Of a stretch of DNA of 64,000 bases, positions 317-42,766 are shown in pieces. Within the stretch, counting starts at the first letter, position 1, and the number at the start of each line of letters is the position of its first letter. A program made the translations under genes and the position numbers. The stretch covers positions 31,868,001 to 31,932,000 of the forward strand of contig OZ024747.1 of NCBI GenBank assembly GCA_964016885.1, in the 5' to 3' direction. The stretch is from Eledone cirrhosa. Its lineage: Eukaryota. The notes under the pieces were generated by a model. It had not been told where the DNA came from. It saw nothing but the letters and a program-made list of their open reading frames with translations, and did not search any database.

Positions 317-2248
317 TTAATTAGGTTTATAATATTTAAATGTTTTTTTTAGTTTATGATTACACGATATAATTAATTCCTGTCTTTTATTTAATAAGAT
401 ATCCCTAGACTTCATTATTTCAAATAGTTCTTGGGAACATAATCTACATTCCTTTCTATTATTTTGATAAGGGGTGGCTCTTTTGAGCACACTCCAGGTC
501 AAATCATATTTTATATTTTTATTTTTATAACTATTGATTTTTTCTGCTAGAGATGTTGTATTAGCCAGTGCGGCATTTTTAAAGCTATGTTTGTGGGTAT
601 TATACCTTGTCTTAAAATTGTTAGAGGTAGCTCCTATATATGAGCAAATAGAATCTTTAGTTTTAACATTACATTTATAGACTATGTTGTTAACAAGACA
701 ATTCCCTTTTAATGGGCAGTTTGTTTTGTTTCTACAGTTACATCCTTTCGTTAATTCTGTATTTGAGGAGATATTATTGTTAATTTGATGTACTGGTGGT
801 ATACTTATAGTTTTCTTACATTTATATGCATTATATGCACTTATATTTTGTTTTATGTTATTTGTTGTAGAATATGAGAATTTAACTGTAGACCTATTTA
901 AGATTTGATGGTATTTGTGGTTTGGCGGGAAGTTTTTCTCAAGGATATAAAAAAATTTTTTAGCAATATTATCCTTAACTTGTAAATTAAAAGGAGCATT
1001 ATACCAAGTAACTCGTCTATTACGGTTTCTATGTTGTTTATTATTTTTATTATTTTTATATGTTGTATCATGATTTTTACTAGGAGGAATAATGTTAATG
1101 ATCTCACCACAACTATTTTTAGTTATATTTGTAGATTTAGGTGTTTTATCTTTTTTATTAGGAGTTTTATTATTAATATTTATTATAGTCTTATGATGAG
1201 TAGTTTTTTGAGGGTTACTATACTTTATATTAGAAGATTTAGTATTTTGGGGTATACTGTGGGTGGCATTTAGGTGTGTACTTTTCATTTGGTGTTTGTT
1301 GGTAATATTATGCTGTATGTTTTCAGTATTTTTAGTAGAAGTTATATACTCTAATCTATTTTTGTGGCCACTTCTATCTAGAGCTTCATTATAAAAGGTC
1401 GCATTTTTATCAAATACATCTTGGTTAGAAGAAAGGTTAGAAATTCTAAGTGATATATTATATGCAAGGTTTTTAAGGATAGATTTAGGGTGATTAGATT
1501 GTGAGTGTATGTAATGTAAGTTTTGGTTAGGTTTATGGTAAGGTTGGTATATACCCGTAGCTAAATCTAAAGTTATATCTAGGAAATTTACTACTTTACT
1601 TGTTTTTTCAAAAGTAATATTAAGATTATAATAGTCTTTAAGGAAAGTTCTAATATGCTTTTTGTTTTTTTCGATTTCTGAAAGGCTAAGGTTGTTAGAA
1701 AGAAGAAGACAGTCATCACGATATAAACCACCTTTGAGGTGGGGAAAAGAGGCATTTATGTTGAAAAGGAGAAAGAGGCCCACAAGATCAGTAATTTGGG
1801 CAGAATCGCTTGAACCCATAGTAATATCAAAAAGATTACTATAAGTGTTTCTGGTCCAGTATTCATTCTGAAATTCAATAAGTGTTTGTCTAGCATGTGT
1901 AATAATGTTAATGTCATCCGAAGTTAAATTAGATCTATTTTTAGCAAATATTAATGCTTTGTTCAGGAGTATGGGTGATATAGAAGAATAATAATTATCT
2001 ATATCAAACTGTAGGAAAGAAGCAGAAGATTTACACCTAATATTTTTAAACCAATTAATTACCTGGGAGGTGTTTTCCCAGAGTGGTAAAATAACGTATT
2101 TTCTTATTTGTGGGATGACTCTATCTAAAATTTTTTTGCTAATTATTCCAATATCTGATTTGGAGGGACATATAAGTCTAATAGAAGGATTAGAGTTAAA
2201 GTTAGATTTGTGATCTTTCAGGTTGAAGTGTGGACTTCTCAAGTCCAC
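317..2248 (-). CDS. Mirror copy of the same Penelope-like RT/GIY-YIG ORF on the left palindrome arm
   Basis: Translation identical to 2230..4161 from SPHFNLKDHK onward. Confidence 0.92.
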   Translation of the reverse strand: MDLRSPHFNLKDHKSNFNSNPSIRLICPSKSDIGIISKKILDRVIPQIRKYVILPLWENTSQVINWFKNIRCKSSASFLQFDIDNYYSSISPILLNKALIFAKNRSNLTSDDINIITHARQTLIEFQNEYWTRNTYSNLFDITMGSSDSAQITDLVGLFLLFNINASFPHLKGGLYRDDCLLLSNNLSLSEIEKNKKHIRTFLKDYYNLNITFEKTSKVVNFLDITLDLATGIYQPYHKPNQNLHYIHSQSNHPKSILKNLAYNISLRISNLSSNQDVFDKNATFYNEALDRSGHKNRLEYITSTKNTENIQHNITNKHQMKSTHLNATHSIPQNTKSSNIKYSNPQKTTHHKTIININNKTPNKKDKTPKSTNITKNSCGEIINIIPPSKNHDTTYKNNKNNKQHRNRNRRVTWYNAPFNLQVKDNIAKKFFYILEKNFPPNHKYHQILNRSTVKFSYSTTNNIKQNISAYNAYKCKKTISIPPVHQINNNISSNTELTKGCNCRNKTNCPLKGNCLVNNIVYKCNVKTKDSICSYIGATSNNFKTRYNTHKHSFKNAALANTTSLAEKINSYKNKNIKYDLTWSVLKRATPYQNNRKECRLCSQELFEIMKSRDILLNKRQELIISCNHKLKKTFKYYKPN

Positions 2249-4161
2249 ACTTCAACCTGAAAGATCACAAATCTAACTTTAACTCTAATCCTTCTATTAG
2301 ACTTATATGTCCCTCCAAATCAGATATTGGAATAATTAGCAAAAAAATTTTAGATAGAGTCATCCCACAAATAAGAAAATACGTTATTTTACCACTCTGG
2401 GAAAACACCTCCCAGGTAATTAATTGGTTTAAAAATATTAGGTGTAAATCTTCTGCTTCTTTCCTACAGTTTGATATAGATAATTATTATTCTTCTATAT
2501 CACCCATACTCCTGAACAAAGCATTAATATTTGCTAAAAATAGATCTAATTTAACTTCGGATGACATTAACATTATTACACATGCTAGACAAACACTTAT
2601 TGAATTTCAGAATGAATACTGGACCAGAAACACTTATAGTAATCTTTTTGATATTACTATGGGTTCAAGCGATTCTGCCCAAATTACTGATCTTGTGGGC
2701 CTCTTTCTCCTTTTCAACATAAATGCCTCTTTTCCCCACCTCAAAGGTGGTTTATATCGTGATGACTGTCTTCTTCTTTCTAACAACCTTAGCCTTTCAG
2801 AAATCGAAAAAAACAAAAAGCATATTAGAACTTTCCTTAAAGACTATTATAATCTTAATATTACTTTTGAAAAAACAAGTAAAGTAGTAAATTTCCTAGA
2901 TATAACTTTAGATTTAGCTACGGGTATATACCAACCTTACCATAAACCTAACCAAAACTTACATTACATACACTCACAATCTAATCACCCTAAATCTATC
3001 CTTAAAAACCTTGCATATAATATATCACTTAGAATTTCTAACCTTTCTTCTAACCAAGATGTATTTGATAAAAATGCGACCTTTTATAATGAAGCTCTAG
3101 ATAGAAGTGGCCACAAAAATAGATTAGAGTATATAACTTCTACTAAAAATACTGAAAACATACAGCATAATATTACCAACAAACACCAAATGAAAAGTAC
3201 ACACCTAAATGCCACCCACAGTATACCCCAAAATACTAAATCTTCTAATATAAAGTATAGTAACCCTCAAAAAACTACTCATCATAAGACTATAATAAAT
3301 ATTAATAATAAAACTCCTAATAAAAAAGATAAAACACCTAAATCTACAAATATAACTAAAAATAGTTGTGGTGAGATCATTAACATTATTCCTCCTAGTA
3401 AAAATCATGATACAACATATAAAAATAATAAAAATAATAAACAACATAGAAACCGTAATAGACGAGTTACTTGGTATAATGCTCCTTTTAATTTACAAGT
3501 TAAGGATAATATTGCTAAAAAATTTTTTTATATCCTTGAGAAAAACTTCCCGCCAAACCACAAATACCATCAAATCTTAAATAGGTCTACAGTTAAATTC
3601 TCATATTCTACAACAAATAACATAAAACAAAATATAAGTGCATATAATGCATATAAATGTAAGAAAACTATAAGTATACCACCAGTACATCAAATTAACA
3701 ATAATATCTCCTCAAATACAGAATTAACGAAAGGATGTAACTGTAGAAACAAAACAAACTGCCCATTAAAAGGGAATTGTCTTGTTAACAACATAGTCTA
3801 TAAATGTAATGTTAAAACTAAAGATTCTATTTGCTCATATATAGGAGCTACCTCTAACAATTTTAAGACAAGGTATAATACCCACAAACATAGCTTTAAA
3901 AATGCCGCACTGGCTAATACAACATCTCTAGCAGAAAAAATCAATAGTTATAAAAATAAAAATATAAAATATGATTTGACCTGGAGTGTGCTCAAAAGAG
4001 CCACCCCTTATCAAAATAATAGAAAGGAATGTAGATTATGTTCCCAAGAACTATTTGAAATAATGAAGTCTAGGGATATCTTATTAAATAAAAGACAGGA
4101 ATTAATTATATCGTGTAATCATAAACTAAAAAAAACATTTAAATATTATAAACCTAATTAA
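2230..4161 (+). CDS. Penelope-like element ORF, 5'-truncated: reverse transcriptase + CxCx5Cx5C linker + C-terminal GIY-YIG endonuclease
   Basis: RT motifs LKDHK..IRLICPSK, QFDIDNYYSSI, ITMGS, LYRDD, VNFLDITL, YHKPN, SNHP. Linker CNCRNKTNCPLKGNC. Endonuclease IVY..YIG..FKTRY..H, CRLC..E, LNKR.E..CNH. Uninterrupted but starts at GTG in the palindrome loop with no N-terminal domain. Confidence 0.92.
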   Translation: MDFSSPHFNLKDHKSNFNSNPSIRLICPSKSDIGIISKKILDRVIPQIRKYVILPLWENTSQVINWFKNIRCKSSASFLQFDIDNYYSSISPILLNKALIFAKNRSNLTSDDINIITHARQTLIEFQNEYWTRNTYSNLFDITMGSSDSAQITDLVGLFLLFNINASFPHLKGGLYRDDCLLLSNNLSLSEIEKNKKHIRTFLKDYYNLNITFEKTSKVVNFLDITLDLATGIYQPYHKPNQNLHYIHSQSNHPKSILKNLAYNISLRISNLSSNQDVFDKNATFYNEALDRSGHKNRLEYITSTKNTENIQHNITNKHQMKSTHLNATHSIPQNTKSSNIKYSNPQKTTHHKTIININNKTPNKKDKTPKSTNITKNSCGEIINIIPPSKNHDTTYKNNKNNKQHRNRNRRVTWYNAPFNLQVKDNIAKKFFYILEKNFPPNHKYHQILNRSTVKFSYSTTNNIKQNISAYNAYKCKKTISIPPVHQINNNISSNTELTKGCNCRNKTNCPLKGNCLVNNIVYKCNVKTKDSICSYIGATSNNFKTRYNTHKHSFKNAALANTTSLAEKINSYKNKNIKYDLTWSVLKRATPYQNNRKECRLCSQELFEIMKSRDILLNKRQELIISCNHKLKKTFKYYKPN

Positions 4162-4671: not shown

Positions 4672-6003
4672 ATATGTATATCTATATGTATATGTATATG
4701 TGTGTATTGTATGTGTATCTGTATGTATATTTATGTGACTATATATGTATGTATGTGTATATATATGTATATATATATATATATATGTGTATGTATATGT
4801 ATATGTATGTGTATGTGTATGTATATGTATGTGTATGCGTATTAATTTTGATTTTTATTTGCATATAATTATATTATGCTATTGATGAAATACAATATCT
4901 GCTTTATGTATTGTATACCTAATTAACATATACTAATTAACATATACTATTGAAATAAATATATAATTTTTAACTTAGTTAACATATAATTTATATGCTA
5001 CTACCGATGTAATACTTTATTTTATTTTTATTTGGGTTTCTTTTCCCTATTACTAAATTCATCTCCTAATATTGATACCATAACGTTATTAACTTTAATT
5101 TAGTTATAATGTAATTAATAATCTACTACTGTTTGACTTCATAATTCTGCTTCAAATATTATAAACCTAACTAATTTACACCTTGGAAATCAATATGTTG
5201 ACTATCTTTGGTTTAGTTGACATATGATTAATGGTATACTTTTTTATTTTGTGATGCATAGATTTCGTATTTCCTAGCACTGAAAATATGTAAGAACATA
5301 CATTGAATTAAGATATGGAAAATATTATAGGTTTCTTGAAACATATATTTACTTTGATCCCCTTCTCCAAACCCCCCCCTTTCCCCCATACTATTATCAT
5401 CTGTTTTTGTAAGTGTATATGTATGAATATATGTGTAGATGGGTGTCTATATAGTTTTTTTTGGTTTTTATTTCTAAATATAAAAATACATATATGAGCA
5501 TGTAAATATGAATGTAAGATTGAGTGTGTATATATGATTGTACATACATGTGTATGTATATATATGTATATATATGTATTATATATGTACGTGTATGTGA
5601 ATGTGTGGTATATATATGTGTATGTATATGTATATATGTGTGTGTATGTGTATGCTTGTATATAGGAATATATATGTGTGTATATATGTGTATATATATG
5701 TATATGCGTGTTTGTATGTATGTATATGGGTTCTGTAAATATTTGTATGTCTCTCTATTTATATGTTTATCTTCGTATCTATGTGATATATGTGTGTGTG
5801 TGTGCACGTATGCATATGTATGTGTTTGTGTGTGTTTGTATGTGTGTGTGTATATATATGTATGTATTTGCGCACACTCACATACACATATATATATATA
5901 TATATATATATATGTGAGTGTGTATGTGTGTCTGTATGTGTGTGCGTGTGTGTATATGTGTATATATATATATATGTGTATGTATGTGTATGTGTGTGTA
6001 TAT

Positions 6004-6041
<38 letters not shown>

Positions 6042-6180
6042 ATATAGGTGTCTATGTGTGAATATATGTCTTTATTCGTATGTGTGTATTTATATATGTT
6101 TATATCTAGGTGTATGTATGTATGTGTATGTATGTATGTATATGTATGTATATGTATGTATATGTGTATATGTGTGTATA

Positions 6181-6211
<31 letters not shown>

Positions 6212-6426
6212 TATTCTTTATTATTATTGTAATATAACTTATGTGTATATGTGTATAAGTGAGGTTGTGTATGTATATATACTATGTGTATATATAAGAG
6301 TAATGAAATATATATATATATATATATATATGTGCATGTCTGTATTTTATGTGTGTGTGTATATATATGTGTGTATGTGTGTATATATGTATGTATATAT
6401 ACATATATGTGTACGTGTGTGTATGT

Positions 6427-6469
<43 letters not shown>

Positions 6470-6578
6470 TGGATGTTTGTATGTGTTTTCATGGTGGTAT
6501 GAGTGTGGGATATATATGTTTATGTATAAGTATATGTATGTGTATGTATATATATATGAGTCTATGTGTGTGTGTATA

Positions 6579-6619
<41 letters not shown>

Positions 6620-6815
6620 ATGTGTGTATGTGTTGCGCGTGTGTGTGTCCGTATTTTTATCTTTTTATATGTGTATGTGTATGTTCGTGTAAATGTATGG
6701 GTGTGTATGACAGTATAGGTATGTGTGTATGTATGTATGTGTGGATATCTCTATGTGCGTGTACATGTATGTATGTGTATGTATATCTGTATGCGTATGT
6801 ACATTATATTATATG
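4672..6815. repeat. Degenerate (TA)n/(TG)n/(TATG)n microsatellite tracts (4672-4841 and ~5490-6815) with an AT-rich spacer
   Basis: Direct reading of the sequence. Confidence 0.9.
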
Positions 6816-7387
6816 TAATATATTTTATTGTTTTTATTTTTTTATTTTTCATAATTTATAGATACATTTATATTAGGCTGTCTGGTCTGACAACCTAATA
6901 CTGACCCCTCCCCCCCCCTCCCACCTAATTTCTGTATCTTGATCTTGAAATGTGTGTACCAGTGTGTTTATGTGAGTGACTTAATTTCTATTTGCTTATG
7001 ATTTTATATCCACATATATAAATGTGAGTGGGGGAGTGTGTGTGTTTGTGTGTTCGTGGTTATGTGTATATTTATATATATACGCACATGTATGTGTGAT
7101 TATACTGATATGTGTGAGTATGAAAAAAATATATTTATATGCTTGACTCCATAAGTATCATTGCGTATCTTATCAGCGCATTAAGCTTACAGAGATATTA
7201 ACCTTGAAATTTTTTATTTGCATCCATCTTTTTAGTATGCACATACAAATTATACACACATTATTGTAAAATGTGTGTAGTGTTTTACATGTATATACAC
7301 ACACCAAACTGCTTTTTAACCCTTTGTGTTTTCATTGGTCAATTTTGAACTGATATTTTGAATTGTTGTTATTATCAATAAATATAC

Positions 7388-7542
7388 TTCATTATTTCTG
7401 AAGACGGCGTATATATGAGTTAGGTATGTATATTTAATCTTGATAATTTGTATAATTTTGTATAATTTTGTACATAGATCTGTTAAATATGCATACCAAT
7501 TATAACACATATATACCCTAGAAACGATCGTTAAATAGTGAA
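7388..7542 (+). ncRNA. Type I hammerhead ribozyme with a long stem II (family A), in a PLE pseudo-LTR-like unit ending at 7730
   Basis: Stem I TTCATTATTT/AAATAGTGAA; core CTGAAGA 7398-7404; ~115-nt stem II (GTATATATG..GGTATGTATATTTAA / TTAAATATGCATACC..CATATATAC); GAAA 7521; stem III C-GATC-G; GUU cleavage triplet. Homologues at 18090-18293 and 44671-45170. Confidence 0.8.
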
Positions 7543-7730
7543 CTTTTTTTGTTTAATATAAGGAATTGTTTGTTCATTATTTGTTTAATATTTTATCTTG
7601 ACTCTGTATACCGTTTATCTTTCACCGAAATTGGATTTTCATTACATCTCTTCTTTCCATGATATCCGGAATACATTGAGTTCTTCATACGGATTGGACA
7701 CTACCGTAAACTCTTGGTAGATTTATCTAC

Positions 7731-11367
<3,637 letters not shown>

Positions 11368-11693
11368 AGTTGAAAAAAATGAAAACGAAATTTCATTTCT
11401 CACTCTTAGTATGGCACTTACTTAAATGTAAGTATGTATGTATACGTACATACATATATGTATACAGACGTACAGTAGCATGCATATATATACACATATA
11501 TATATATACATATATATACATATATATACACATATACATACAGGTACACATACATATATGCACGCATCAGTTTAGCGGACGTTTATTACAACGCCGCTTT
11601 GTTCGTTTGTTTGTCAACAAACCGAACAGCCTGAATTTATGCCATACGGTGTTAAGGCAACCACGTCACCTTTTTGTTCAACACTGACACAGG

Positions 11694-11738
11694 AACGATG
11701 TACTAGTTTCAAGCTTGTTAGCTTTCATCAGCACCGTT
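11694..11738 (-). ncRNA. Minimal type I hammerhead ribozyme, copy 1
   Basis: Minus strand: AACGGTG-CTGATGA-AAGCT-AACA-AGCTT-GAAA-CTAG-TA-CATCGTT. 7-bp stem I, 5-bp stem II, 1-bp stem III with palindromic CUAG loop, GUA site. Confidence 0.9.
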
Positions 11739-12181
11739 TACCCATCTGCCAGATAGTTGAACGTTCGAAAGTATATACTTTCCTTATGAAAATTAACGGC
11801 TGAGCAGCCTAATTTGCATATTGAGTGAGTTAAATCGGTCAGGCATACCGAAAACGATAAGTTGAAAAAAATGAAAACGAAATTTCATTTCTCACTCTTA
11901 GTATGGCACTTACTTAAATGTAAGTATGTATACGTACATACATATATGTATACAGACGTACAGTAGCATGCATATATATACACATATATATATATACATA
12001 TATATACATATATATACACATATACATACAGGTACACATACATATATGCACGCATCAGTTTAGCGGACGTTTATTACAACGCCGCTTTGTTCGTTTGTTT
12101 GTCAACAAACCGAACAGCCTGAATTTATGCCATACGGTGTTAAGGCAACCACGTCACCTTTTTGTTCAACACTGACACAGG

Positions 12182-12226
12182 AACGATGTACTAGTTTCAA
12201 GCTTGTTAGCTATCATCAGCACCGTT
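12182..12226 (-). ncRNA. Minimal type I hammerhead ribozyme, copy 2
   Basis: As copy 1 but stem II begins TAGCT, giving a U.U mismatch at the first pair. Confidence 0.85.
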
Positions 12227-12673
12227 TACCCATCTGCCAGATAGTTGAACGTTCGAAAGTATATACTTTCCTTATGAAAATTAACGGCTGAGCAGCCTAA
12301 TTTGCATATTGAGTGAGTTAAATCGGTCAGGCATACCGAAAACGATAAGTTGAAAAAAATGAAAACGAAATTTCATTTCTCACTCTTAGTATGGCACTTA
12401 CTTAAATGTAAGTATGTATGTATACGTACATACATATATGTATACAGACGTACAGTAGCATGCATATATATACACATATATATATATACATATATATACA
12501 TATATATACACATATACATACAGGTACACATACATATATGCACGCATCAGTTTAGCGGACGTTTATTACAACGCCGCTTTGTTCGTTTGTTTGTCAACAA
12601 ACCGAACAGCCTGAATTTATGCCATACGGTGTTAAGGCAACCACGTCACCTTTTTGTTCAACACTGACACAGG

Positions 12674-12718
12674 AACGATGTACTAGTTTCAAGCTTGTTA
12701 GCTATCATCAGCACCGTT
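12674..12718 (-). ncRNA. Minimal type I hammerhead ribozyme, copy 3
   Basis: Identical to copy 2. Confidence 0.85.
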
Positions 12719-12853
12719 TACCCATCTGCCAGATAGTTGAACGTTCGAAAGTATATACTTTCCTTATGAAAATTAACGGCTGAGCAGCCTAATTTGCATA
12801 TTGAGTGAGTTAAATCGGTCAGGCATACCGAAAACGACAACTTATCGTTTTCG

Positions 12854-14010
<1,157 letters not shown>

Positions 14011-17207: not shown

Positions 17208-20220
<3,013 letters not shown>

Positions 20221-21974: not shown

Positions 21975-22448
21975 CAGCAGCAACAGCAGCAGAAGCAGAA
22001 GCAGCAACAGCAGCAGAAGCAGCAACAGCAGCAGAAGCAACAATAGCAGCAACAGCAGCAGAAGCAGCAACAGCAGCAAAAGCAGCAACAGCAGCAGAAG
22101 CAACAACAGCAGCAGAATCAACGCCAGCAGCAGAAGCAACAACAGCAGCAGAAGCAGCAACAGCAGCAGAAGCAGCAACAGCAGCAGAAGCAGCAGCAGA
22201 AGCAGCAACAGCAGCAGAAGCAACAACAGCAGCAGAAGCAACGCCAGCAGCAGAAGCAACAACAGCAGCAGAAGCAGCAACAGCAGCAGAAGCAGCAACA
22301 GAAGCAGCAACAGCAGCAGAAGCAACAACAGCAGCAGAAGCAACAACAGCAGCAGAAGCAGCAACAGCAGCAGAAGCAACAACAGCAGCAGAAGCAACAA
22401 CAGCAGCAGAAGCAACAACAGCAGCAGAAGCAGCAACAGCAGCAGCAG
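21975..22448. repeat. Compound trinucleotide repeat with an 18-bp higher-order unit AGC-A(G/A)C-AAC-AGC-AGC-AGA
   Basis: Direct reading; about 26 units with occasional dropped triplets. Confidence 0.93.
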
Positions 22449-36155: not shown

Positions 36156-36617
36156 TAACATTGAAAGAGATAGAAGGTCAAACAATGTAAAATGGTGTGT
36201 AAGATGAGGAAACGAAAAGTAAAAGTAAGTTACCTGGTAATCTTTTTTTTTTTTTGTTCTTTTATCTGTTCAATATTTCGGGACATGAAAGTCCCTTCAT
36301 CAGGGTTTAATGAACTTTCAGTGGATAATGTTCCAATTTCCTTTCTTTGGGATAAAATTTTGATTATGATTTAAATTTTTTCTAAGTTGTTTAAAAAAAT
36401 TTAATCAAATTCTAAATTTTATCTGACATAGAGGAAATTGGAACATTATCCACTGAAAGTTTTTGAAACCCTGATGAAGGGACTTTCAGGTCCCGAAATA
36501 TTGGACAGTTAAAAGAACAAAAAAAAAAAAGATTACCAGGTAACTTACTTTTACTTTTCGTTTCCTCATCTTACACTCCATTTTGCATTGTTTGGCCTTC
36601 TATCTCTTTCAATGTTA
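36156..36617. mobile_element. Fold-back PLE pseudo-LTR-like element with an HHR-like core in each arm
   Basis: Arms ~36156-36359 and 36415-36617 with scattered mismatches. CTGATGA-A-GGGAC-TTTCAG-GTCCC-GAAATATT at 36471-36502, mirrored near 36271-36305. Stem I is weak. Donor-like CAG/GTAAC follows at 36538. Confidence 0.72.
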
Positions 36618-36759
36618 TATATTACATACAATGCTTCAAGCAAACTATAACATTTTATTATATATATATATACAATGGGATATTCAATTTGTTGGTAATT
36701 CAACAAATATAAATGTTTATAACTGATTCAGAGCTCTCAACAAGGTTTCTGGAGTATAA

Positions 36760-37102
36760 TATACAATGATATTAAATAAATGGAAACTATATTTATAAAA
36801 CCATATTTATTCTATTATATATATTTCAAGGGTACCAACATTTTGGTACACTATCATCAGATAAAATACAAAATGTTTTATAAATATTTGACATAACCAA
36901 GGATAATATACCTTAATATACCTTTCCAGGGATAACTTGAACCATTAAGGTATATTATCCTTGGTTATGTCAAATATTTATAAAACATTTTGTATTTTAT
37001 CTGATGATAGCGTTACCAAAATTTTGGTACTCTTGAAATATATATAATAGAATAAATATGGTTTTGTAAATATAGTTTCCATTTATTTAATATCATTGTA
37101 TA
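36760..37102. mobile_element. Fold-back PLE pseudo-LTR-like element with an HHR in each arm
   Basis: Arms 36760-36917 and 36944-37102. HHR 36993-37054: TATTTTAT-CTGATGA..TACCAAAATTTTGGTA..GAAA-T-ATAT-A-TA-ATAGAATA. Unpaired homologue at 42927-43105. Confidence 0.8.
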
Positions 37103-40772: not shown

Positions 40773-42766
40773 GTTGAGGATACATGAGAATCGACTCGGA
40801 ATGTAAGCAGGGGTTGAAAAGTTTAGGGTGTGAAGCTTACTAACATATCTATAGAAGGGAACCAAACCTTAAGAGGAATAGAGTTGTGAGGAGGTTGTGT
40901 AAGAAGTGGGGGAAAGAATCAAGGAAACAGAGAAACATAGAATATACAATATGTACTTGAATATAAGTCCATCTCAATATAAGCCAATCCCTATCTTATA
41001 TCTGAGAAATAGGCAAAAATCCAAACTCCATGTATATGACAAGACAGTTAATCAACACATTATATTTAGATGGTGCGGTTTTGATATTTTCATGAATGGA
41101 GAATATATTTATGCAGTTTTAATATTTTGATAATTAAAATGTTTTAAGTGTCGTTTAGCATATAGTTTTTGTTTCACAACACCATTTTGTAATGATCTTT
41201 TATCATTTCATCAGTTTTATAAAGTTTCAATGAGTTTCTTGATATTTTGTTTGCATCTGGCCACATACTAGTGCCGTCTCCTGTATAAACAGATTTTTAT
41301 TTGATATACACATCAAATTTGGGCCTTAAATAACTTGAAAACAATATATTATCATATAAGTATTAAAGCTTTAGGTAGATTTTAAAATTTAAATATCAAA
41401 TAATTTCTGAAAGTTTTGAAGTTTTAATTCAAACCACATCAAAAACAATAGGAAATATTTTTTACCTCCATAGAGACAACTGATGTAATATTCACCTCTA
41501 AATTTGAGAACTCTGTGGATTACCCAAACCCCACTGATTACTTAAAATAATAATAATTTTCAACGGTTTTGAAAGCTAGATTCATTCAAAATATGAGAAA
41601 TGTCATATGAAAAACACAAATTTTAGCATCAATGCGAGAGATGCAATTGTAAAACATTTATCAAGCTTGATATAGTAGCACCTTATTTATTTAGAATTTG
41701 AAGTTGGGGAAAATCAGCAAAATATTGACCCTGAATATTAGCTAACTCCATTTTACCATTGATTTTTTTTGGCCACATATTTCTCAGCTTATATAAAAAT
41801 ATATATGGTAATTGAAATAAAAGGAGCAGGTGAGGAGTATTGATTAAAGTACTAAATTTAGAATATCCTATATATATGTGCACATACACGCACAAATAAA
41901 TACACATGTATTTATATGTAGAGTCTGAGCTGAAGATACACATAAGGTGAAACATTTGTTCTCGGTATGGTGAACTAACTGTCGTGTTACTACTTCTATA
42001 TATATATACATATATATATATATGGTTAGTCATCAGGGCTGTTATATTTATGGATATATATCTTCCCTCTGTTTTCACAGCTACATCACTTTCCTCTCGT
42101 GTGCTTGCGTGTGGGTGCATATATTTGTGTATGTGTGTGTGAGTATACCTACAGTGTATGTACATATGTAACAGCCAAACATATAAAAGGATGTGTATGC
42201 CTACATATATATATTGATTTATGTGTTAGAATACATATGTATCCCCTGCCCCCACATACAATAATGTGTATATGTAAATATATACATTGATATGTGTGAG
42301 AATATATATGAATATACGTAGAGTGTATATACATATATATCCCTTGCCTACATCCAATAATGTGTATGCATACCTATATACATTGATAAGTATGTGTGTG
42401 CATATGTTTATCCATCTGTGTATGCTTAGGCTTGTGGATGTGTTGGTGTATGTGCATGTGTGTATTTGCGCATGTTGCACATTCCCTGACATCTGAAAGT
42501 CAGACCAGAGGGAAATCGAACATAATTAAGTAGCATACTTATATGTGCCTTTTAAAAGATCAATATTTCTGAATCAAGTCATTGGGAAAATGAAAGCAAA
42601 AGAAAACACATCTGAATGTGGGTCATTTAGATACATGCACTAGCATTGATCAATGGTGTGTATATATGTAAATGTGTATTACATATATATACATATATAC
42701 ATGCATATATATATACATACATATATATATATGCTAGCGTGGAAGATAGATGTTAAACGATGATGA

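Follow-up and report, generated by a model that had tools for sequence, protein, structure and literature searches.

Head-to-tail hammerhead units beside a (TA)n tract belong to a dispersed family with PLE-type two-arm insertions and a U6-type element upstream of each ribozyme

The window, a 64,000-nucleotide stretch of Eledone cirrhosa DNA analysed here as a whole, contains on its minus strand a trimer of head-to-tail units of 492, 488 and 492 nt, which start at 11365, 11857 and 12345, recur with periods of 492 and 488 nt and together occupy 11365-12836 (Table 1). Each carries a hammerhead (HHR), and only two differences distinguish the units: a 4-nt indel in their internal microsatellite and, where stem II of the HHR begins, a single base substitution. 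The initial annotation had described three near-identical, non-coding HHR units on this strand and was borne out in this respect: open reading frames overlapping the units are confined to those read through the microsatellite and to short ones of no more than 102 amino acids. GC content in the interval 12001-13000 is around 0.36. Positions within the unit, designated q, are counted along the minus strand starting at 12836.

Table 1. Features of the trimer locus, in positions of the window.
Feature	Position	Strand	Remarks
Long-ended arm of a family-A retrozyme insertion	11365..12837	-	units 12345-12836, 11857-12344 and 11365-11856
Type I HHR, first unit	12674..12718	-	U-U mismatch at stem II base; predicted cut after 12681
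Type I HHR, middle unit	12182..12226	-	predicted cut after 12189
Type I HHR, 3' unit	11694..11738	-	private change giving a 5-bp stem II; predicted cut after 11701
U6-type 12-mer	12789..12800; 12297-12308; 11809-11820	-	identical in host U6 and RNase MRP
TATA box	12751..12757; 12259-12265; 11771-11777	-	43 nt from 12-mer start
Internal TA/TG microsatellite of unit	12410..12540	-	~140 nt; long hairpin predicted
58-60-nt 'tail' between the two fixed 3' ends	11365..11426	-	hairpin plus T4/T7 runs
(TA)n tract, insertion target	7724..11367	.	3.6 kb
Stump of second, inverted arm	12838..12856	+	19 nt, equal to unit positions 485-492 and 1-11
Neighbouring two-arm family C insertion	12854..13502	+	~557-nt unit, non-coding, PLE-type

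At its 3' end the array runs, as first described, into the long (TA)n tract. Scattered G residues interrupt the left portion of this tract and C residues the right portion, as if two halves, each coming from the element on its side, faced each other, and at 7151-7730 and 18035-18295 of the window the end of another repeat family, copies of which are present in at least nine of the examined loci, adjoins TA tract. The 19-nt inverted copy of the array's own junction that had been noted on the other side is indeed present, and its interpretation can now be refined: when read against the two-arm anatomy of other loci, set out below, it is the stump of a second arm. A 3-nt overlap marks the point at which the stump is fused with a neighbouring insertion, namely the left arm of a different repeat here called family C. 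A deletion between the two neighbouring insertions is likely the simplest reading of this fusion, and most of the second arm of the trimer locus was likely lost afterwards in this way. Family C itself has a non-coding tandem unit of ~557 nt, 1786 genomic candidates, two-arm insertions in (TA)n and a tail of ~118 nt (window 12854-13502; L209-L219). Neither a canonical type I HHR nor the 12-mer discussed below was found in it; its CUGAUGA core, flanked by a 7-bp helix (window 13230-13280), could be an atypical hammerhead.

The HHR cores of the trimer are positioned at 12711, 12219 and 11731, with the flanking sequences that the initial annotation had given, and a complete type I HHR is present in 3/3 units, with a helix I of 7 bp, a helix II of 4-5 bp and a 1-bp helix III capped by a palindromic tetraloop. 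Cleavage at the predicted sites would release monomers of 492 and 488 nt. In the canonical metazoan type I HHR a 1-bp helix III likewise bears a palindromic loop and the ribozyme is thought to be active as a dimer (PMC4209133), whereas the min-HHR of PLEs is described as having no helix III, a long helix II of 7-8 bp and a short helix I (PMC4209133, Cervera & de la Pena 2014). By the definitions given in the available text of that source, the trimer HHR is, as predicted from its sequence, of the canonical metazoan type and not a 'minimal' PLE HHR. The earlier designation of a minimal, dimer-type, type I HHR therefore holds for the type, the 1-bp stem III and the palindromic loop, but not for the word minimal, the helix II being of 4-5 bp. 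The palindrome of helix III is kept, although with differing letters, in four HHR families of the genome, and the helix III duplex of a dimer has a predicted energy of -4.8 kcal/mol. Helix II has a U-U mismatch at its base, a trait in common with the axolotl HHR_Amex2 (PMC7229834; bioRxiv 10.64898/2026.07.22.740005).

No Rfam family matched the trimer at gathering score; below that score, weak matches to Hammerhead_HH9 fall at all three sites, with E values of 0.019-0.31. The motif does not, however, owe its presence to chance, since an exact 32-nt stretch of the HHR recurs in 11,361 genomic copies, compared to 0 for a reversed-pattern control. The predicted fold of the monomer has a z score of -10.3, a value driven largely by the microsatellite, with -2.0 for positions 101-297 and -1.1 for the HHR region. 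A test for selection on the HHR and promoter yielded 1/17 template-borne as against 22/107 single variants, a difference that is not significant (p 0.19).

Searches of the 3.0-Gb genome assembly place the trimer as one locus of a young, dispersed, non-coding tandem HHR family, hereafter family A. A 308-nt query returned 690 candidates, among which the 40/40 that were scored, on contigs C1-C4, proved 100% identical, and the exact junction of the long end (see below) with TA occurs 393 times in the genome and 0 times in the control. The genome-wide copy search that had been proposed thus found a unit dispersed in thousands of copies rather than a local duplication. Near-identical units beside a long TA tract would fit an expansion introduced in assembly, or a local duplication; this explanation is hardly credible given the dispersed copies, the two places at which the units differ and the occurrence of the family in public sequencing data from four studies (no run being recorded as RNA), contigs of which contain the unit-to-unit junction (loose ends at 12837). 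Contigs of the public runs X1-X3 are too short to span the junction at 12838-12857. One raw poly(A) RNA run, X7, which is labelled as another organism, contained 0 family-A reads, a zero that carries no weight for or against transcription. Our literature search retrieved no description of family A, of a U6-class promoter in a retrozyme or of a pairing of long and short ends with a shared template; such descriptions may reside in Repbase or Dfam, in subscription papers or in supplements.

The anatomy of family-A insertions was read from 11 regions obtained with the 308-nt query and from the first 60 long-end junctions on C1, of which 59 were kept and one (L084) was left out. Most insertions are head-to-head with their 3' ends facing outward into (TA)n. 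These ends do not show the permuted start points that the initial annotation had led one to expect, falling instead at two fixed sites 58-60 nt apart, a short one at ~q430 and a long one at ~q489. An inverted arm abuts the long-ended one in 36 of the 59 C1 loci, all of them anchored on the long end; it ends at the short site into TA in 30/36 cases and at the long site in 0/36, with 6/36 unassignable or of another kind. By our chain rule the other 23/59 loci are without an abutting inverted arm, four of them having short stubs. The pairing of long with short recurs in loci not selected by their ends, being seen in 9/9 young two-arm insertions and in 5/5 with both ends visible. Since the longer arm may be either one of the pair, neither can be regarded as a fold-back copy of the other.

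The inner ends of the arms, by contrast with the fixed outer ones, are scattered over the unit: 1/82 lies at the HHR cut, where 1.6 would be expected. At the centre of the insertion the arms overlap by at least 2 nt in 18/27 insert-free junctions, compared to a null expectation of 17% (p 2e-8). This set leaves out duplicate rows and 14 junctions with inserts, several of which resemble copies of nearby sequence; scoring the 14 as misses gives p 6e-5. Target-site duplications are not readable at family-A insertions since both ends run into (TA)n. An inverted truncated copy, a tail confined to one end and a bias towards (TA)n are the reported features of PLE insertions (PMC8557442; PMC3846280), and by this analogy the layout of family A is a PLE footprint, as had been supposed for the insertion in (TA)n. 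A PLE reverse transcriptase has been described as starting at two internal RNA sites that bound the tail and as nicking and extending both strands, with a dimer predicted (Frangieh 2024, PMC11167929). We are confident that family A represents a retrozyme-type family mobilised by a PLE.

The two arms of an insertion in all likelihood derive from a single source RNA or locus. They belong to the same subfamily at 21/22 callable loci, where chance would give 0.27. With the exact microsatellite string employed as a locus haplotype, identical strings were found, within the same subfamily, in 174/419 same-arm, 36/104 opposite-arm and 180/2928 between-locus pairs, figures to be read in the knowledge that pairs are not independent and that a few loci dominate. 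Arms of 11-15 units with almost no differences between units occur (L067, C2a). At locus L057 two unit types alternate in both arms. A marker of one type has just 8 genomic occurrences, which divide between L057 (6) and L263/L264 (2); the assembly therefore holds no longer alternating source, an observation that fits a dimer circle. At L263/L264 itself the array has five units, whose several types follow one another without periodicity; a linear template of many units, or template switching, would account for this, a single monomer circle would not. At L103 and L094, variants are common to non-adjacent units of one arm, with period 2 and period 6, so that arrays also expand after insertion.

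Such expansion might be thought to account for the arrays as a whole, insertions being born with short arms of one or two units and growing later, in the manner of satellites, by unequal exchange or slippage. This route has been discussed by Li et al. 2026 (bioRxiv 10.64898/2026.07.22.740005) and would explain the periodic sharing just mentioned, yet it is the youngest subfamily that has the longest arrays, their units nearly free of differences (C2a, C3a), the same alternation occupies both L057 arms, and the two fixed ends and microhomology joins would still call for a PLE step. We consider it improbable as the general explanation. On balance we favour circles as the template of the long arrays, for which the nearly invariant arms of 11-15 units, the scarcity of inner ends at the HHR cut and the alternation at L057 all speak, and rolling-circle copying is, to judge by the sequences, likely to lie behind them.

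Alternatively, the same two-site PLE insertion could draw on linear, uncleaved multi-unit transcripts arising through read-through by Pol II or leaky Pol III, in which case the HHR would be a slow or protein-dependent passenger and no circles would be formed. The non-periodic array at L263/L264 is in keeping with such a template, as are the weak helix III with the U-U mismatch and the absence of any pile-up of inner ends at the cut site, which is also compatible with uncut RNA. Cleavage by the HHR was, moreover, dispensable for the anole PLE in vitro (PMC11167929), and 8/9 Xenopus retrozyme dimers did not cleave (bioRxiv 10.64898/2026.07.22.740005). A linear source does not, however, sit easily with the alternation in L057, for which the assembly offers no longer array, or with a template of 15 units, which would pass 14 T7 runs if Pol III were used. 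Furthermore, among 10 loci examined, one of which (L091) holds two insertions, a substitution private to one unit never recurs in the opposite arm of the same insertion, the alternating type of L057 excepted. Linear templates appear to us rather unlikely.

A novelty beyond the initial annotation is the U6-type promoter in each unit. Its elements appear in the order 12-mer, TATA, HHR, with the first two just upstream of the ribozyme. With 0-1 mismatch, the same 12-mer is located at -77 to -79 in host genes for RNase MRP, U6atac and U6 (three independent types of the latter), all of which have a TATA at -30; the U6 and RNase MRP versions are identical to that of the unit and U6atac has one mismatch. 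Allowing up to 2 mismatches, the 12-mer is absent upstream of 8/8 U1 and 6/6 U2 genes examined, and, allowing up to 1, it is absent from 11/11 H2A/H2B spacers examined. U1 and U2 share a short motif near -55 which is not the U6 element. Certain U6 matches (L121, L122, L143-L154) are without the 12-mer and are read as retro-pseudogenes. In U6 copies of the L114 type the 12-mer is displaced by an insertion, and five of six U6atac matches are without it near -78. In some U6 copies ~230 nt of inserted sequence separates the TATA from the gene, and U6, U2 and U1 genes occur in tandem arrays (L110-L120 on C19, L125-L142 on C3, L225-L231 on C2).

The element extends beyond family A. The block q37-86 aligns with the otherwise unrelated HHR family B, and the core order of 12-mer, TATA and HHR yields 18,875 genomic matches, as against 0 for the control; those inspected include family A, an older form of A, families B and D, and the degenerate E and F. 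The layout is common to at least three diverged HHR families, the bodies of B and D not aligning. HHR or HHR-like repeats with a U6-type 12-mer and TATA were noted at L081 (B), L164/L192/L197-L205 (D), L182/L196 (E), L194/L195 (F) and L077, the unit length being ~460 nt in family B and ~310 nt in family D.

If the host rule of TATA at -30 is applied, transcription is predicted to start near 12727 (~q110), some 9-10 nt before HHR stem I. The first T-runs after this start lie at q472-484, within the tail and near the 3' end of the unit, and families B and D are alike in this; for one unit per family, the first run of at least four T is at +362 in A, ~+270 in B and +214 in D. Neither cDNA end coincides with the T7 run, one being situated before it and the other beyond, so that a terminated Pol III RNA would not be the template and read-through would be required. 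With its position ahead of the start, the promoter would be missing from any terminated transcript, and we infer that only read-through to the next HHR could found an active copy. The spacing of the elements departs somewhat from that of the host: families A, B and D place the TATA 42-44 nt from the 12-mer, compared to 47-49 nt in five host genes, a shortfall of 4-6 nt, and only family F has a host-like 48 nt. The 12-mer contains an octamer, whence a Pol II octamer-TATA promoter is a possibility. The match to the host genes nevertheless suggests that a Pol III type 3 promoter is probably in use in family-A units.

The Pol III promoter of the schistosome satellite is of the A/B-box type. Both this Sm-alpha satellite and satellite 2 of the newt resemble family A in being HHR tandem repeats with their own small-RNA-type promoter (PMC2220036). 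The schistosome promoter is situated inside the repeat, whereas the family-A element is of the upstream type; that of newt satellite 2 is an snRNA promoter used by Pol II, whereas family A matches the element of U6, U6atac and MRP, not that of U1 and U2 (PMC2220036).

Many PLE fragments are present in the examined loci, in ~1 Mb of which no autonomous PLE was found to contain the family-A HHR, tail or 12-mer. The PLE termini there have other HHRs and no 12-mer. In 59 of at least 393 long-end loci no unit was fused to a PLE ORF (RT plus GIY-YIG), and in 23 single-arm 5' flanks inspected no shared coding sequence was fused to the unit. Attachment to a PLE ORF as an ordinary pseudo-LTR, against which the initial annotation had suggested checking, was thus not seen in the sampled loci. 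These results bear on the idea that an autonomous PLE has this unit as its pseudo-LTR, heavily 5'-truncated copies of that element forming the arrays. In its favour, the ends have the same anatomy as the PLE termini of this genome, and Xenopus retrozymes resemble pseudo-LTRs (bioRxiv 10.64898/2026.07.22.740005), but the units adjoin one another directly with no ORF between them, and this, along with the differing termini and the flanks in the loci sampled, makes the idea very improbable.

For a non-coding family mobilised by a PLE, the preferred reading, one weak lead to a partner is the L051 group. This is a young RT/GIY-YIG-like family with copies 96-99.5% alike, a TA target and a tail of 59-60 nt; comparison with family A revealed no sequence likeness. 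The RT of the L051 ORF falls below the Pfam cut-off and no Pfam GIY-YIG match was obtained, BLASTP to the GIY-YIG of L039 giving E 4e-5, and an L051 copy has a GIY-YIG-like C-terminus with a cysteine motif, frameshifted. Tails of other families measure ~66, 70, 89, 98 and 118 nt, so the agreement in tail length is one among about six families measured, and a rough estimate puts chance only a little short of even as its origin. At 4690-7830 of the L051 locus, the N-terminal half of a PLE ORF is interrupted by a long stretch rich in asparagine, similar in this to the N-rich inserts known from the Penelope elements of rotifers (PMC3846280). Within the window, a head-to-head pair of 644-aa frames at 320-4158 resembles PLE RT fragments by eye, with no match in Pfam.

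These elements can be assembled into a chain that leads from Pol III-type transcription through a dimeric HHR cut and a circle to two-site PLE priming on (TA)n and a microhomology join, and to the chain as a whole we give slightly better than even credence. Host U6-class machinery, recruited by the promoter match observed, would initiate ~10 nt upstream of the HHR; termination at the U-run would be the usual outcome, with transcription continuing now and then into the following HHR. Two HHRs, paired through their palindromic helix III, would then cut as a dimer. The 490-nt monomer set free in this way would include the upstream promoter, which the terminated RNA would not, and a host ligase would close it. 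Next, in keeping with the insertion anatomy, both strands of the (TA)n target would be nicked by a PLE protein that probably acts as a dimer, one cDNA starting at each end of the 58-60-nt tail and both passing the HHR site for a variable number of rounds. Lastly, annealing of the cDNA ends through the microhomology seen at the centre, followed by fill-in, would leave two head-to-head arms with a long end on one and a short end on the other.

A broader proposition, which we put forward tentatively and hold to be possible rather than probable, is that several retrozyme families have captured the external U6-class Pol III promoter of their host, and that a dimeric Penelope RT rolls one circle from two starts to produce palindromic multimers. 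The captured promoter would then be retained only because HHR cutting and circularisation put it inside the RNA. If true, this would amount to a SINE-like strategy achieved by circular permutation, and would provide a large natural record of the PLE integration mechanism.

Non-LTR retrozymes, their proposed link to PLEs, and the tails and inversions of PLEs themselves are already known. As in the metazoan non-LTR retrozymes (PMC7229834; bioRxiv 10.64898/2026.07.22.740005), family A has non-coding tandem units, each with a type I HHR, and low GC; as in those elements, too, an LTR, PBS and PPT appear to be absent, and mobilisation by PLEs through circles has been proposed for them. The unit of 492 nt is longer than the 150-450 nt retrozymes of Cervera & de la Pena 2020 (PMC7229834) and lies inside the range of 51-972 nt given by Li, Clavereau & Pollet 2026 (bioRxiv 10.64898/2026.07.22.740005). 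Two-arm long/short insertions, (TA)n targeting and a U6-type promoter, all seen in family A, are not described for retrozymes in the available portions of those two papers, and the words 'inverted' and 'microsatellite' have 0 occurrences in the available text of PMC7229834. With EN+ PLEs (PMC8557442; PMC3846280; PMC11167929) family A shares the inverted 5'-truncated copy, the tail at one end, the (TA)n bias, the two internal RT start sites and the microhomology joins. It is unlike them, as described in the available text, in being without an ORF, in the length of the tail (58-60 nt vs 30-40), in that both arms can be many units long, and in the strict pairing of long and short ends with a shared template, here counted over many loci.

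The making of tandem and inverted PLE insertions has been called undefined (Craig et al. 2021, PMC8557442), and the case for mobilisation of retrozymes by PLEs is presented as resting on co-occurrence and pseudo-LTR likeness (PMC7229834; bioRxiv 10.64898/2026.07.22.740005). Family A places the PLE footprint directly on a retrozyme, and adds rules that can be counted: each start site gives rise to one arm, the two arms share a source, and they meet at microhomology. These fit the in vitro model of two start sites, two strands and a dimer, for which the family supplies a 490-nt test substrate. The U6-type promoter, for its part, may explain the need for such elements to be tandem or circular. 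With it, the Pol III upstream element of this animal lineage is defined, which is useful for small-RNA expression tools.

Further repeats were noted elsewhere in the window. Two head-to-head HHR-bearing insertions are located at 36200-36660 and 36670-37100, the second being long- plus short-ended with a tail of ~89 nt, and a single HHR motif occurs at 41930. A CAG/CAA-rich tandem array with a period of 18-54, which could encode a low-complexity stretch, extends over 21975-22445.
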